Positions 15,589 to 17,352 of a DNA stretch of 18,551 nucleotides are shown in pieces. Numbering within the stretch: position 1 is the stretch's first letter; the number at the start of each line of letters is the position of its first letter. The translations under genes were made by a program, and so were the position numbers. The notes beneath the pieces were generated by a model, which saw only the letters and a program-made list of their open reading frames with translations, ran no database searches and had not been told where the DNA came from. This DNA is from an archaeon. GTDB taxonomy: Archaea; Nanobdellota; Nanobdellia; Woesearchaeales; UBA9642. Location: positions 1 through 18,551 of the forward strand of contig JAZDHK010000012.1 of the NCBI GenBank assembly GCA_043806035.1, in the 5' to 3' direction.

Positions 15589-16896
15589 TTATAATTTATC
15601 CGCAGTCAGCACTTGCATGCCGCCGGTCGGTTGCTCGACGGTGTCCATGGCGCAAAGATAGGATACGCCTGCGCGCTCTGCTGCTTGCATGAGCTCCTTG
15701 TCGATGATGCCGTCGAAGATGACTGCGAAGATGCCTGACTTCAGGCTCTTGATCGTGCCACCAAGTTCAGTGACGGGAACCTTGCCAAGAATGGTCAGGC
15801 TGTTGTCGAGGATGTACGCTCCTCTCGTCCCTATCAAGGATTCGAGCAGTTCAGAGAAGCTTGCCCGTTCTTCATCAGTGAGTTTGCGTGGTTCTTTGCG
15901 GGGCATCTGCCTATCCTGGCGTTCAGGACGGTCTTGCCTTTCTGACCTGGAGTCCTGTCGGGATTCTCTCTCCTGGCGAGGGTCTGGCCGTTGCTGGCGC
16001 TGCTCTCGCTTGCGTTCTTCCTGCTGCGTCATGATGCTGTTGTGGTACTGGGAGCCTTCCTTGCCCGTAATCTCCAGTTTCACCTGCTCGGCTGCAATCC
16101 TGCTGCGCAAGGCCTTGTGGATTTCCTTCTTTGCGAGCTCTTCCACTTCCTTGCCGTCAGGTGCCTTGGTGATGTAGTCAATATCAGTCACGTCGAGCAA
16201 CTCCTGGATGATGAGGTTGCCGCCTCTGTCGCCATCGACAAAGACCGTGACCACCTTCTTCCTGCACAAGTCGATGACCGTCTCAGGAACTGAGGAACCG
16301 TTGATGGCTATGCAGTTCTTGAAGCCGTGCTTGAGCATATTAAGGACGTCTGCCCTGCCTTCTACGACGATGATTTCTTCAGACTCGTCGATCATGGGGC
16401 CTGCAGGGACGCGATCCTTGCCGTACTCCTTGATTTCAGAGACTCTGACGGAGCTGGACACTTCATCAGCAAGATCTCTTGAGTCGGGCATCATGTCTTC
16501 TGTCAGCGTCTTGAGGAGTTCCTTTGCACGTTCGATGACGAACTGCCTCTTCGAGATTCTGACGTCTTCTATCTTATCGACCAGGATTTTTGCGTTGCAC
16601 GGACCTATTCGTTGAATAATCTCCAATGCTGCCGCGACGATTGCCGTCTCTGACTTGTCCAGAGAACTGGGCAGGATGATCTCTCCCTTTGTCTTTCCGT
16701 TCCTAATTTCGAGGTTGACCTCTATTCGTCCTATCTTTCCTGAGCGCTGTAATTCTCTCAATTCAAGGTCTGCTCCAAGAAGTCCTTCTGTCTGGCCAAA
16801 AACTGCTCCTATGACGTCTGGCCTGTCCACGACACCATCTATCTGGATGGCACTGTGTACTATGTATTTTGCCGCTACCGGGCTTATCTTTCCCAT
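15589..16896 (-). CDS. dnaG: Archaeal DnaG (bacterial-type primase homolog, exosome-associated)
   Basis: N-terminal GVVDRPDVIGAVFGQTEGLLG..L.LRELQRSGKIGRI; TOPRIM motifs VEGRADV and DGDRGG; APDGKEVEEL. SD AGGTGA upstream (plus strand TCACCT, 16901-16906). Confidence 0.96.
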   Translation of the reverse strand: MGKISPVAAKYIVHSAIQIDGVVDRPDVIGAVFGQTEGLLGADLELRELQRSGKIGRIEVNLEIRNGKTKGEIILPSSLDKSETAIVAAALEIIQRIGPCNAKILVDKIEDVRISKRQFVIERAKELLKTLTEDMMPDSRDLADEVSSSVRVSEIKEYGKDRVPAGPMIDESEEIIVVEGRADVLNMLKHGFKNCIAINGSSVPETVIDLCRKKVVTVFVDGDRGGNLIIQELLDVTDIDYITKAPDGKEVEELAKKEIHKALRSRIAAEQVKLEITGKEGSQYHNSIMTQQEERKREQRQQRPDPRQERESRQDSRSERQDRPERQDRQMPRKEPRKLTDEERASFSELLESLIGTRGAYILDNSLTILGKVPVTELGGTIKSLKSGIFAVIFDGIIDKELMQAAERAGVSYLCAMDTVEQPTGGMQVLTADKL

Positions 16897-17043
16897 AATT
16901 TCACCTGTGGTGAGAAAAAGCTCTGCTTAAGACGATGCTATTTGCACAATGTGTCTTCGTGAATTGATGAGCATGCTTTTCCTCTTGAGAACTGCACTTA
17001 TCCCTAGACGCTGTTGCGCGTGAGTGAATGTGAAGTTCATGTG

Positions 17044-17113
17044 TCAGAAATCGCCTGCGATTTCTGATCACGATCAAGAACCACGCGTCACATACGTTAC
17101 TGGTGGTTCTTGA
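17044..17113. repeat. Twin perfect inverted repeats (REP/MITE-like palindromic element)
   Basis: TCAGAAATCGC-ct-GCGATTTCTGA (17044-17067) and TCAAGAACCAC-18 nt-GTGGTTCTTGA (17074-17113). Both have 11-bp arms and are bounded TCA...TGA. Confidence 0.7.
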
Positions 17114-17118
17114 CGATC

Positions 17119-17294
17119 GCCATAACCCAAAAAAGGGTTGTTGCCCGCAACACTAACTCTCAAGGTCATCACCAGACTCAGTCTTGAGTTCCCCCGAGTA
17201 ACTCTCGTGGCGGGCTGTAATGTGCAAGAGTGTCTCCAAGTCCCAGCTCAGCCTTAGGCAGAGCTCCTAAGAGGACCCATTTGCACACAATGGC
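17119..17294 (-). ncRNA. Candidate ~176-nt structured RNA (multi-branch, K-loop) upstream of dnaG
   Basis: Closing helix GCCAU/AUGGC; inner helices UGUGCAA/UUGCACA, GCCCGC/GCGGGC, CUCAAG/CUUGAG and AACCC/GGGUU; a CUGA-5nt-GUGAUGA motif at a hairpin apex. A TATA box lies 24 nt upstream of the first G. Confidence 0.6.
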
Positions 17295-17317: not shown

Positions 17318-17352
17318 TATTTAAACTTTGTGGTTTGCATAAGATTTATATA
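17318..17352. promoter_or_regulatory. Divergent TATA promoters for the ncRNA/dnaG transcript (-) and pan (+)
   Basis: Minus-strand CAAAG-TTTAAATA (TATA 17325-17318). Plus-strand TTTATATA (17345-17352) lies 24 nt before pan ATG 17376, implying a leaderless transcript. Confidence 0.7.

Follow-up and report, generated by a model that had tools for sequence, protein, structure and literature searches.

Archaeal box H/ACA guide RNAs carry an ANA box at a distance of 14 to 15 nt from the pocket and a K-turn 5 to 6 bp above the pocket (PMC2377435). The H/ACA sRNAs of Pyrococcus contain one to three such motifs per RNA, motif 2 of Pab40 acting at position 1932 of the 23S rRNA, and eight domain-V pseudouridines lie in helical segments (helices 89, 90, and 93 are named), none being stated to fall in the A loop in the available text (PMC2377435). 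The sR-h45 RNA of Haloferax volcanii shows distances of 15 and 17 nt, with its second stem-loop, SL2, functional at 17 nt, and experiments in this organism have demonstrated that the SL2 geometry yields two pseudouridines (PMC7075261). A CCA variant of the box is on record for Pyrobaculum (PMC4652768). In N. equitans, one H/ACA sRNA of 159 nt has been described, which is abundant and free and has its own box A and its own T-stretch or terminator (PMC3491384).

Here, we analyzed an 18,551-nt stretch of DNA (the window) from a Woesearchaeota-type (DPANN) archaeon, and we conclude with good confidence that its minus strand carries, from about 17294 to 17139, the gene for a box H/ACA guide sRNA of two hairpins with its own TATA box. 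The original prediction had placed a candidate novel structured RNA at this locus, and all of the letters that it quoted were found in place, including the TATA box TTTAAATA (17325-17318, 24 nt ahead of G17294) and an ACA after each of two arms (17218-17216 and 17141-17139). The features of the gene are given below from 5' to 3', and in naming the rRNA loops, we take the predicted target loop of hairpin 2 to be helix 69 and that of hairpin 1, the A loop, to be helix 92.

17318-17325, minus strand: TATA box TTTAAATA of the sRNA gene (from TTTAWA motif positions in relatives)
17139-17294, minus strand: the H/ACA sRNA itself, which begins at G17294, ends with the second ACA, and measures about 156 nt (from alignments and the RNA contig)
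17281-17287, minus strand: hairpin 1 lower stem P1, 5' strand UGUGCAA, pairing with 17221-17227
17274-17280, minus strand: hairpin 1 pocket, 5' guide AUGGGUC, able to pair with ACCCAU(U) on the 3' side of the A-loop target
17267-17273, minus strand: hairpin 1 upper stem P2, 5' strand CUCUUAG, pairing with 17234-17240 (CUUGGAG)
17241-17266, minus strand: hairpin 1 K-turn (5' GA 17266-17265; 3' UGG-GA 17245-17241) and distal stem-loop 17264-17246
17228-17233, minus strand: hairpin 1 pocket, 3' guide ACACUC, able to pair with GGGUGU on the 5' side of the A-loop target
17221-17227, minus strand: hairpin 1 lower stem P1, 3' strand UUGCACA, pairing with 17281-17287
17216-17218, minus strand: first ACA box (hinge), 15 nt past the upper stem
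17207-17215, minus strand: hairpin 2 lower stem, 5' strand GCCCGC plus CAC, pairing with 17143-17148 and 17151-17153
17199-17206, minus strand: hairpin 2 pocket, 5' guide GAGAGUUA, pairing with (UA)ACUCUC of helix 69
17193-17198, minus strand: hairpin 2 upper stem P2, 5' strand CUCGGG, pairing with CUUGAG 17159-17164
17165-17192, minus strand: hairpin 2 K-turn (5' GGA 17192-17190; 3' GAU-GA-C 17170-17165) and distal stem-loop 17189-17171
17154-17158, minus strand: hairpin 2 pocket, 3' guide A-GUUA, its GUUA pairing with UAAC of helix 69
17139-17141, minus strand: second ACA box, 17 nt past the upper stem
17129-17134, minus strand: T6 run, a likely transcription stop and the loop of the originally predicted third arm

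In geometry, the RNA resembles sR-h45: both RNAs have two H/ACA hairpins with a K-turn in each, a 5' hairpin that is a typical guide with a distance of 15 nt, and a 3' hairpin that pairs with the helix-69 loop, leaving UNUN unpaired and 17 nt between target and ACA (PMC7075261). They differ in the predicted target of the 5' hairpin, which is the A loop (helix 92) here and the Psi2605 site for sR-h45, and in the linker between the hairpins, which is 2 nt plus the ACA here and 56 nt in sR-h45 (PMC7075261). Measured against the published rules, the pocket-to-ACA distance of hairpin 1 (15 nt) falls within the range of 14 to 15 nt and that of hairpin 2 (17 nt) outside it, while the pocket-to-G.A spacing is 6 to 7 bp versus 5 to 6 bp (PMC2377435). 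The N. equitans sRNA belongs to the same archaeal class and likewise has two extended K-turn-bulge hairpins split by an ACA alone, but it is not adjacent to dnaG, being flanked by a gene for tyrosyl-tRNA synthetase and a hypothetical gene, and its targets, which may already include helix 69, are predictions only (PMC3491384). A small, single-contig genome of the class (G199) contained one match to hairpin 2 with a second hairpin just upstream. Seven Pyrococcus sRNAs (Pab21, Pab35, Pab40, Pab91, Pab105, Pab160, and Pab19) are built to the same plan, a hairpin with a pocket, an ANA box, and either a K-turn or a K-loop (PMC2377435), but their sequences differ from those found here, and the Rfam families built from such RNAs gave no match. 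Searching the whole window against Rfam at gathering scores yielded no match, the sole match between 17420 and 16850 at an E value of up to 10 was an irrelevant one to ST7-OT3_1 on the plus strand (15.5 bits, E = 7.3), and ARAGORN found no tRNA in the window.

Both hairpins follow the H/ACA design, in which covarying stems surround invariant loop strands. Among 21 sequences aligned for hairpin 1, two-sided changes occurred in all seven pairs of the lower stem UGUGCAA/UUGCACA, an outer stem already proposed in the original prediction, and in six of seven pairs of the upper stem CUCUUAG/CUUGGAG, which supersedes the GUCC/GGAC pairing that had been proposed within this arm. In contrast to the stems, GGGUCC of the 5' guide, GACAC of the 3' guide, and the 3' GA of the K-turn were invariant or nearly so, GA also being the commonest dinucleotide on the 5' side of the K-turn. 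Over the whole structure, 84% of the cells were paired and 15 pairs showed two-sided changes; none of 500 shuffles reached this percentage or the covariation score, and one reached the count of two-sided pairs. The box of hairpin 1 read ACA in 11 of the 21 relatives, NCA in 9, and UUA in 1. Guide-type hairpin 1 was present in only 14 to 17 of 70 dnaG loci. The 5' module was seen to vary: it was a complete guide hairpin in some cases, a plain hairpin whose loop is conserved in others, and was absent in the rest.

Hairpin 2 was more uniform. In 20 sequences, its lower stem was paired in 100% of the cells; four of five P1 pairs never varied and one changed on both sides, and one relative (G035) carried the fully compensatory stem CUCGC/GCGAG, so that the outer stem GCCCGC/GCGGGC (17215-17210/17148-17143) of the original prediction, like that of hairpin 1, is backed by covariation in relatives. 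Two-sided changes were found in five of six pairs of the upper stem CUCGGG/CUUGAG, whereas GAGAG of the 5' guide, the GA and UGA of the K-turn, and GUU and the following GUG on the 3' side were invariant, and the A between these last two nearly so. The box was ACA in 19 of the 20 sequences and CCA in the other, with AUA, AAA, and GCA occurring in other orders. The whole structure had 93% of its cells paired and nine pairs with two-sided changes, and none of 500 shuffles matched it in percentage paired, two-sided pair count, or covariation score.

Several elements originally drawn around these hairpins did not hold across the family. A closing stem GCCAU/AUGGC was no longer than those formed by shuffled flanks (155 of 200 reached its length), and none of 10 relatives stood out in this respect. 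The CGAG/CUCG and CUCAAG/CUUGAG helices of the second arm were paired in 79% and 64% of the cells, no better than shuffles (93 of 500), and the third arm, AACCC-U6-GGGUU, lies past the ACA box and occurs in only some relatives, its T6 looking like a terminator. The proposed L7Ae-type K-loop was right in that GUGAUGA lies within a K-turn, but the partner of this strand is the 5' GGA at 17192-17190 and not CUGA, and the distal stem makes the motif a K-turn.

The CUGA...RUGAUGA letters bear on another reading, in which the RNA is a C/D-box sRNA or a reduced housekeeping RNA, namely, RNase P or SRP RNA, and K-turns are indeed also found in RNase P RNA and C/D sRNAs. We give this reading almost no credence: CUGA was not conserved in the 20-sequence alignment, whereas the 5' GGA partner in the K-turn was, a terminal pair of C and D boxes is absent, nothing in the window matched Rfam, and the RNase P RNA (124 bits) and SRP RNA (109.1 bits) of this genome were found above cut-offs on other contigs. 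The C/D-box and RNase P/SRP identities were thus rejected, and with them the suggestion of a reduced housekeeping RNA. What had been called an atypical H/ACA-like RNA is H/ACA indeed, but with its pocket, K-turn, ACA, and rRNA complementarity, it stands nearer to the standard archaeal double-hairpin sRNA. The RNA is real and conserved, and it is of a known type, so that its claimed novelty of kind is not upheld; no Rfam model matches it, but a two-hairpin H/ACA sRNA (PMC3491384) and a helix-69 guide of the same geometry (PMC7075261) have been published. A limited search of the literature on H/ACA RNAs in DPANN archaea and Woesearchaeota returned only irrelevant papers and no description of this Woesearchaeota RNA.

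The genome encodes partner proteins for such an RNA, as genes were identified for Cbf5 (an intact equivalog match at 427.7 bits, versus a cut-off of 242), Nop10 (60.3 bits), and L7Ae (106.8 bits). The Pfam model for Gar1 had no match in this genome, which is 93.7% complete, and the same model matched only three of four archaeal controls. We infer that the sRNA binds proteins of this set and that pseudouridine is formed. In each hairpin, L7Ae would bind the K-turn, and Cbf5-Nop10 would bind the lower stem and the ACA box; the two strands of the internal loop would base-pair with the 23S rRNA sequences that flank a uridine, and Cbf5 would convert this uridine to pseudouridine.

The most probable role of the sRNA is to guide pseudouridylation of two functional loops in the large ribosomal RNA. 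The original prediction had called for complementarity of the internal loops to be sought, and in the genome's own rRNA, the best bipartite matches were at LSU 2829 for hairpin 1 and LSU 1933/1935 for hairpin 2, which the Rfam archaeal LSU model places in a UGUUC hairpin loop and a GUAACUAUNAC hairpin loop, respectively. At LSU 2829, the complementarity amounts to 6+6 (or 6+7) bp: ACACUC-GGGUGU and AUGGGU-ACCCAU would form around the UC of the A loop, and the second U of UGUUC, presumably E. coli 2555, or the preceding U, would be modified. For hairpin 2, the complementarity is 4+8 bp at LSU 1933, or 4+6 bp leaving UAUA unpaired; GUUA-UAAC and GAGAGU(UA)-(UA)ACUCUC would form in the helix-69 loop with the UAUA between them left unpaired, and its target uridines would be those that we take to correspond to E. 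coli 1915 and perhaps 1917.

Complementarity to rRNA is by itself not rare when the pocket register is left free, and the scores were modestly above those of shuffles: among 200 shuffled rRNAs, 12 reached the hairpin 1 score, 20 the hairpin 2 score for UN, and 42 that for UNUN. A first scan of the rRNAs in a fixed register, with the pocket top 1 nt off in both hairpins, had given only two weak 16S matches of 8 to 9 pairs, and a whole-genome target scan gave chance-level matches with many G-U pairs, none of them in a known RNA gene. Guide-target covariation was seen for hairpin 2, as guide GAGAG goes with ACUCUC in helix 69 in G199 and in 17 genomes belonging to the order, and guide GAGAA with AUUCUC in 10 genomes of other orders; the position was Watson-Crick in 28 of 28 genomes across orders, a pattern that represents one or two evolutionary events and not many. 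The prediction for hairpin 1 at the A loop is the weaker one. No compensatory guide-target change was seen for this hairpin in the genomes compared: the guide AUAGGUC of G168 faces an unchanged target with one mismatch, four genomes with variant A-loop stems (G022, G020, G027, and G035) have no guide-type hairpin 1, and of five further genomes that were checked, two yielded a 23S sequence, both unchanged.

Complementarity of this kind could also serve an H/ACA-type RNP RNA that does not pseudouridylate but acts through the same base pairing as a chaperone of rRNA folding or processing, in the manner of snR30/U17, the H/ACA chaperone of eukaryotes. The degenerate hairpin 1 box in half of the relatives, distances slightly off the canonical rules, and the missing Gar1 match in a 93.7% complete genome would all suit such a role. 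We consider it very improbable, as the genome has an intact equivalog match for Cbf5, canonical bipartite flanks surround the targeted loop uridines, and hairpin 2 has the geometry that makes two pseudouridines in H. volcanii (PMC7075261).

We then turn to the sRNA as a gene. It is single-copy in its genome. Of 151 genomes of the order, 133 contained a single match to a model of hairpin 2 (R1), and in a phylum sample of the same size, 141 did so, among them 27 of the 34 genomes from other orders. The TATA box is kept among relatives, with TTTAWA motifs clustering upstream of hairpin 2 at a distance of about 110 nt where the locus has two hairpins and of 30 to 50 nt where it has one; a T run of at least 4 within 25 nt of the ACA was found in 24 of 79 loci. 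In a metatranscriptome run (X2), a 161-nt contig spanned 17141-17292 with no differences, although contigs of such RNA runs give neither strand nor ends, and DNA may occur in an RNA library. Contigs of the same run were absent from the flanks of 17141-17292 (the dnaG leader and the neighboring ATPase gene), which is uninformative on transcription there. Three further RNA runs, with shares of 0.04 (X3) and 0.00 (X4 and X5), were left out as uninformative. This neighboring gene, from 17376 onward, resembles by eye an AAA+ ATPase of the proteasome-activating type. Folding energy, a check named in the original prediction, favored the minus-strand RNA over shuffles (-67 kcal/mol, z = -2.88, 0 of 200 as good), but the opposite strand folds about equally (z = -3.28), and energy thus cannot choose the strand.

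Covarying homologs were to be sought upstream of dnaG in related archaea, and they were found there, with the hairpin upstream of dnaG and on the same strand in 79 of 80 dnaG loci. Conversely, of 52 loci located by way of the RNA, 51 had dnaG just downstream, as did two genomes of other orders (G240 and G181), the dnaG call resting on Toprim Pfam matches and the record titles of relatives. The spacer between sRNA and dnaG has a median of 195 nt and holds a conserved helix, AGAACAAG...CUUGUUCU, with covarying flanks; in the window, this leader helix is formed by 17113-17103 and 17084-17074. A generic test for the longest complement was not significant in these AT-rich spacers (9 of 78 loci exceeded all 30 shuffles); the case for the leader helix comes instead from the way in which the motif pair recurs, with variants. 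TTTAWA was rare before the dnaG ATG (17 in 79 loci, with no peak).

The near-universal linkage, the rarity of both TTTAWA before dnaG and T runs after the ACA, and a spacer with a conserved helix are what one would expect if the structured RNA were mainly a cis-acting 5' leader that controls or stabilizes dnaG, its H/ACA likeness being secondary. We regard this as unlikely. It leaves unexplained the invariant loops complementary to rRNA, the helix-69 covariation, the K-turns, and the ACA boxes; the G199 homologue has no dnaG within 2.4 kb downstream, a T6 run directly follows the ACA in the source genome, and in N. equitans, the RNA is free, abundant, and equipped with a terminator of its own (PMC3491384). 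The originally suggested cis-regulation of dnaG is thus unsupported as the main function of the H/ACA guide RNA, but the strict linkage and the conserved leader helix leave room for co-transcription. We tentatively raise the possibility, which we rate as doubtful, that sRNA, structured leader, and dnaG form a conserved transcription unit across the class Nanoarchaeia, in which the sRNA is cut from, or read through into, the DnaG mRNA, and the leader helix, between the ACA and the dnaG ribosome-binding site, serves as a processing or control signal. DnaG is a subunit of the archaeal exosome. If such a unit exists, it would couple the output of an RNP that modifies ribosomes to a factor acting in RNA decay or as a primase.

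If the hairpin 1 prediction is true, this archaeon would have a pseudouridine in the A loop, a site that is not listed in the available text of the Pyrococcus paper (PMC2377435). More broadly, these results provide a confidently placed H/ACA guide RNA, invisible to Rfam, for Woesearchaeota-type DPANN archaea, which are known from metagenomes alone, and the hairpin 2 model can be used to annotate its gene in hundreds of genomes. The helix-69 guide is retained in nearly every genome of this strongly reduced class, which argues that helix-69 pseudouridines matter there.

The RNA gene occupies an intergenic gap of 479 nt between a Toprim gene (dnaG) and an ATPase gene, in an assembly of 1.5 Mb (42 contigs, 93.7% complete). 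The features of this region are:

15589-16896, minus strand: gene for a Toprim protein (Pfam Toprim matches), named dnaG in the original prediction
17044-17073, minus strand: second perfect hairpin, CAGAAAUCGC-AG-GCGAUUUCUG, after the first leader hairpin
17113-17103 / 17084-17074, minus strand: spacer motif pair as a local hairpin
about 17294-17139, minus strand: the sRNA (hairpin 1, 5'; hairpin 2, 3')
from 17376, plus strand: ATPase gene, the neighbor on the other side of the gap

The dnaG product shares 58-67% identity with relatives recorded as Woesearchaeota, Nanoarchaeota or Nanoarchaeia, and the window is accordingly assigned to a DPANN archaeon of this kind. The sRNA stretch is present as one copy in the genome, and BLASTN with it matched 18 of 40 relatives, from many families of the order, at E values up to 2e-4. 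A MAFFT alignment revealed that the TATA box is kept and the 3' hairpin strongly conserved, while the 5' part is variable. Rfam gave no match at gathering scores over the whole window, the single match on the sRNA region at E values up to 10 was irrelevant, and a tRNA search of the whole window yielded no tRNA gene. The feature is real and conserved.

All strings from which the original prediction had built a three-arm fold were located where it had placed them, and the minus strand folded at -67 kcal/mol (z -2.88), a value that 0 of 200 shuffles equaled. The structure was then defined by covariation, using 20 sequences for hairpin 2 and 21 for hairpin 1. In hairpin 2, the supported lower stem was GCCCG(N)CAC / GUG(NN)CGGGC, followed by loop strands GAGAGU(U)A and AGUUA below a 6-bp stem, above which GGA faces NNUGA before a distal stem-loop. 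Overall, 93% of cells were paired and 9 pairs were changed on both sides, and none of 500 shuffles equaled the observed percentage paired, the count of pairs changed on both sides or the covariation score. The 6-bp stem covaried at 5 of 6 pairs and is CUCGGG/CUUGAG in the window, replacing the CUCAAG/CUUGAG stem drawn originally; the two inner stems proposed for the same arm had 79% and 64% of cells paired, no better than shuffles. Hairpin 1 covaried at 7/7 pairs of its lower stem and at 6/7 of its 7-bp upper stem, with GGGUCC and GACAC of the loop invariant or nearly so. Both hairpins carry tandem GA motifs in a K-turn arrangement, with a 3-nt bulge on the 3' strand and a canonical distal stem. 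The stem said to join the 5' and 3' ends was at chance level (155 of 200 shuffles reached the value of the source genome, and ten relatives behaved likewise), and the third arm lies beyond the ACA box and occurs in some relatives only; the T6 run forming the loop of this arm resembles an archaeal stop signal.

Each hairpin thus defined consists of a lower stem, a pocket, an upper stem and a K-turn, with an ACA box immediately 3' of the lower stem and 15 nt (hairpin 1) or 17 nt (hairpin 2) from the upper stem to ACA. Rules described for archaeal box H/ACA RNAs comprise an ANA box, 14-15 nt and a K-turn separated by 5-6 bp from the pocket below it (PMC2377435), and lower stems of 9 or 8 bp with bulges tolerated and occasionally a CCA box are also described (PMC4652768). 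The sRNA shares the design of these guides. Genes for Cbf5 (equivalog match, 427.7 bits; DKCLD, TruB and PUA domains), Nop10 and L7Ae are present in the genome, and Gar1 was not found in this 93.7% complete assembly. Another option raised at the outset, a reduced housekeeping RNA, was removed, since RNase P RNA and SRP RNA both sit on other contigs of the assembly. The initial reading as an H/ACA-like RNA was right in substance, even if its fold was partly wrong.

To identify targets, the 23S and 16S rRNA genes of the genome were located and scanned for complementarity in two parts flanking a uridine. With the register fixed, the scan returned two weak 16S matches and no more, and allowing the pocket top to move led to two 23S sites. 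Hairpin 1 matched at LSU 2829 (ACACUC and (A)AUGGGU with GGGUGU-[UC]-ACCCAU(U)), and hairpin 2 at LSU 1933 (GUUA and GAGAGUUA with UAAC-[UA]-UAACUCUC), with an alternative register at LSU 1935. The match scores were modestly unusual by themselves, being reached by 12, 20 and 42 of 200 shuffles. On the Rfam archaeal LSU model, the hairpin 1 site aligned with UGUUC, a five-base loop capping a short hairpin, and the hairpin 2 site with the loop of the GGGGGUAACUAUGACCCUC hairpin. We take the former to be the A loop (helix 92), with the uridine at E. coli 2555 (or 2554), and the latter to be helix 69, with the uridines at E. coli 1915/1917.

In most relatives, the 5' guide of hairpin 2 is GAGAGU-A, which pairs from ACUCUC on and leaves UAUA unpaired. 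This pairing with helix 69 follows an atypical arrangement, UNUN, and ACA lies 17 nt away. Experiments have demonstrated the same arrangement in H. volcanii, where stem-loop 2 of sR-h45 makes both pseudouridines of helix 69 (PMC7075261). ACUCUC is lineage specific, the Rfam archaeal consensus at helix 69 being ACCCUC, and it was invariant in all 24 of the relatives' 23S loci (24 of 27) where helix 69 was found by pattern. A GAGAG guide is combined with ACUCUC in 17 genomes of the order and in G199, and a GAGAAU hairpin with AUUCUC in 10 genomes from other orders of the class, so that the guide-target position is Watson-Crick in 28/28 genomes. The change is compensatory between guide and target, although it involves one or two events only. 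Because of the UNUN geometry, the lineage-specific ACUCUC and the compensatory change, helix 69 was accepted as a target above chance. A double-hairpin H/ACA pseudouridylation guide with helix 69 as a target is very probably the best explanation of the feature.

The assignment of the A loop as the predicted target of hairpin 1 is weaker than that of helix 69, and we give it roughly even chances. The A-loop sequence is almost constant, its 3' half being identical in 17 of 24 loci. Checkable genomes with variant A-loop stems have no guide-type hairpin 1, a single genome has a mismatched hairpin 1 guide and an unchanged target, and the box 3' of hairpin 1 is ACA in just 11 of 21 sequences. The pair closing the A loop is G.A in this lineage (near 2829 in the 23S gene of the source genome; about 1831 at locus L039) versus C-G in the archaeal consensus; it is marked non-canonical in the Rfam alignment, and most relatives have the same sequence.

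Folding energy did not decide the strand, since the plus strand folded about as well (z -3.28 against its own shuffles). The minus strand was assigned on the basis of the TATA box, the ACA boxes, the K-turn orientation and the fact that the minus-strand RNA alone is antisense to rRNA. A metatranscriptomic run (X2) contained a 161-nt contig corresponding to 17141-17292 with 0 differences, spanning both hairpins and extending from close to the predicted start as far as the second ACA. This is supporting evidence rather than proof, because contigs show no strand, ends or level and DNA may contaminate RNA libraries.

Of 151 genomes of the order, 133 (one, G149, unpublished) had a single match to a covariance model built on hairpin 2 (R1). 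In a phylum sample, the model matched 141 of 151 genomes, including 27 of 34 from other orders. The 5' module was more diverse. Guide-type hairpin 1 was seen at 14-17 of 70 dnaG loci; elsewhere it is replaced by a plain hairpin whose loop is conserved (UAAUCA in one genus), or any 5' hairpin is missing and the TATA box is shifted beside hairpin 2. In genus g3 (L010, L012, L013, L016, L017, L019), a plain covarying hairpin of 7-9 bp replaces the 5' guide hairpin, with the conserved loop (N)UAAUCA(A) followed by UCA, not ACA. Loci L089 (upstream of 1157) and L057 (upstream of 81) have a K-turn hairpin 1 with differing pocket strands, AAAGUU / CAAA and UAAGUC / AUACCC among them, suggesting that these hairpins may have targets other than the A loop.

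The sRNA lies upstream of dnaG on the same strand in 79 of 80 dnaG loci, and dnaG is just downstream, again on the same strand, in 51 of 52 loci reached through the sRNA (L151-L212 set). The order recurs in two genomes of other orders (L247, L248) and is absent in G199. The median spacer length is 195 nt, TATA motifs before the dnaG ATG are rare, and a T run 3' of ACA is found in only 24 of 79 loci. A complementary pair, AGAACAAG near the ACA box on its 3' side and CUUGUUCU just upstream of the dnaG ribosome-binding site, is conserved (window 16897-17138, minus strand; spacers of L041-L120), with matched variants in different genomes (AAGAACCA/UGGUUCUU, AGAAUUC/GAAUUCU and GAGAAG/CUUCUC). For the hairpin at 17044-17073, conservation was not seen in the spacer alignment. 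Taken together, the linkage to dnaG, the scarce TATA motifs and T runs and the conserved pair suggest, short of proof, that transcription into dnaG often passes through the sRNA gene, a possible case of co-transcription, and that the spacer helix acts in processing or control.

Among known RNAs, H. volcanii sR-h45, as described, is the closest functional match: it also has two hairpins, and its 3' hairpin guides helix 69 with the same geometry (PMC7075261). The closest published relative comes from N. equitans, whose single H/ACA sRNA (159 nt) is reported to have two K-turn hairpins with ACA alone between them, plus a box A and a T-stretch of its own (PMC3491384); R1 matched a two-hairpin locus in G199 resembling that layout. 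A search of one literature library found no published description of the sRNA in Woesearchaeota or other DPANN. The sRNA, whose family is without an Rfam model, is a new and well-supported member of the archaeal H/ACA guides.
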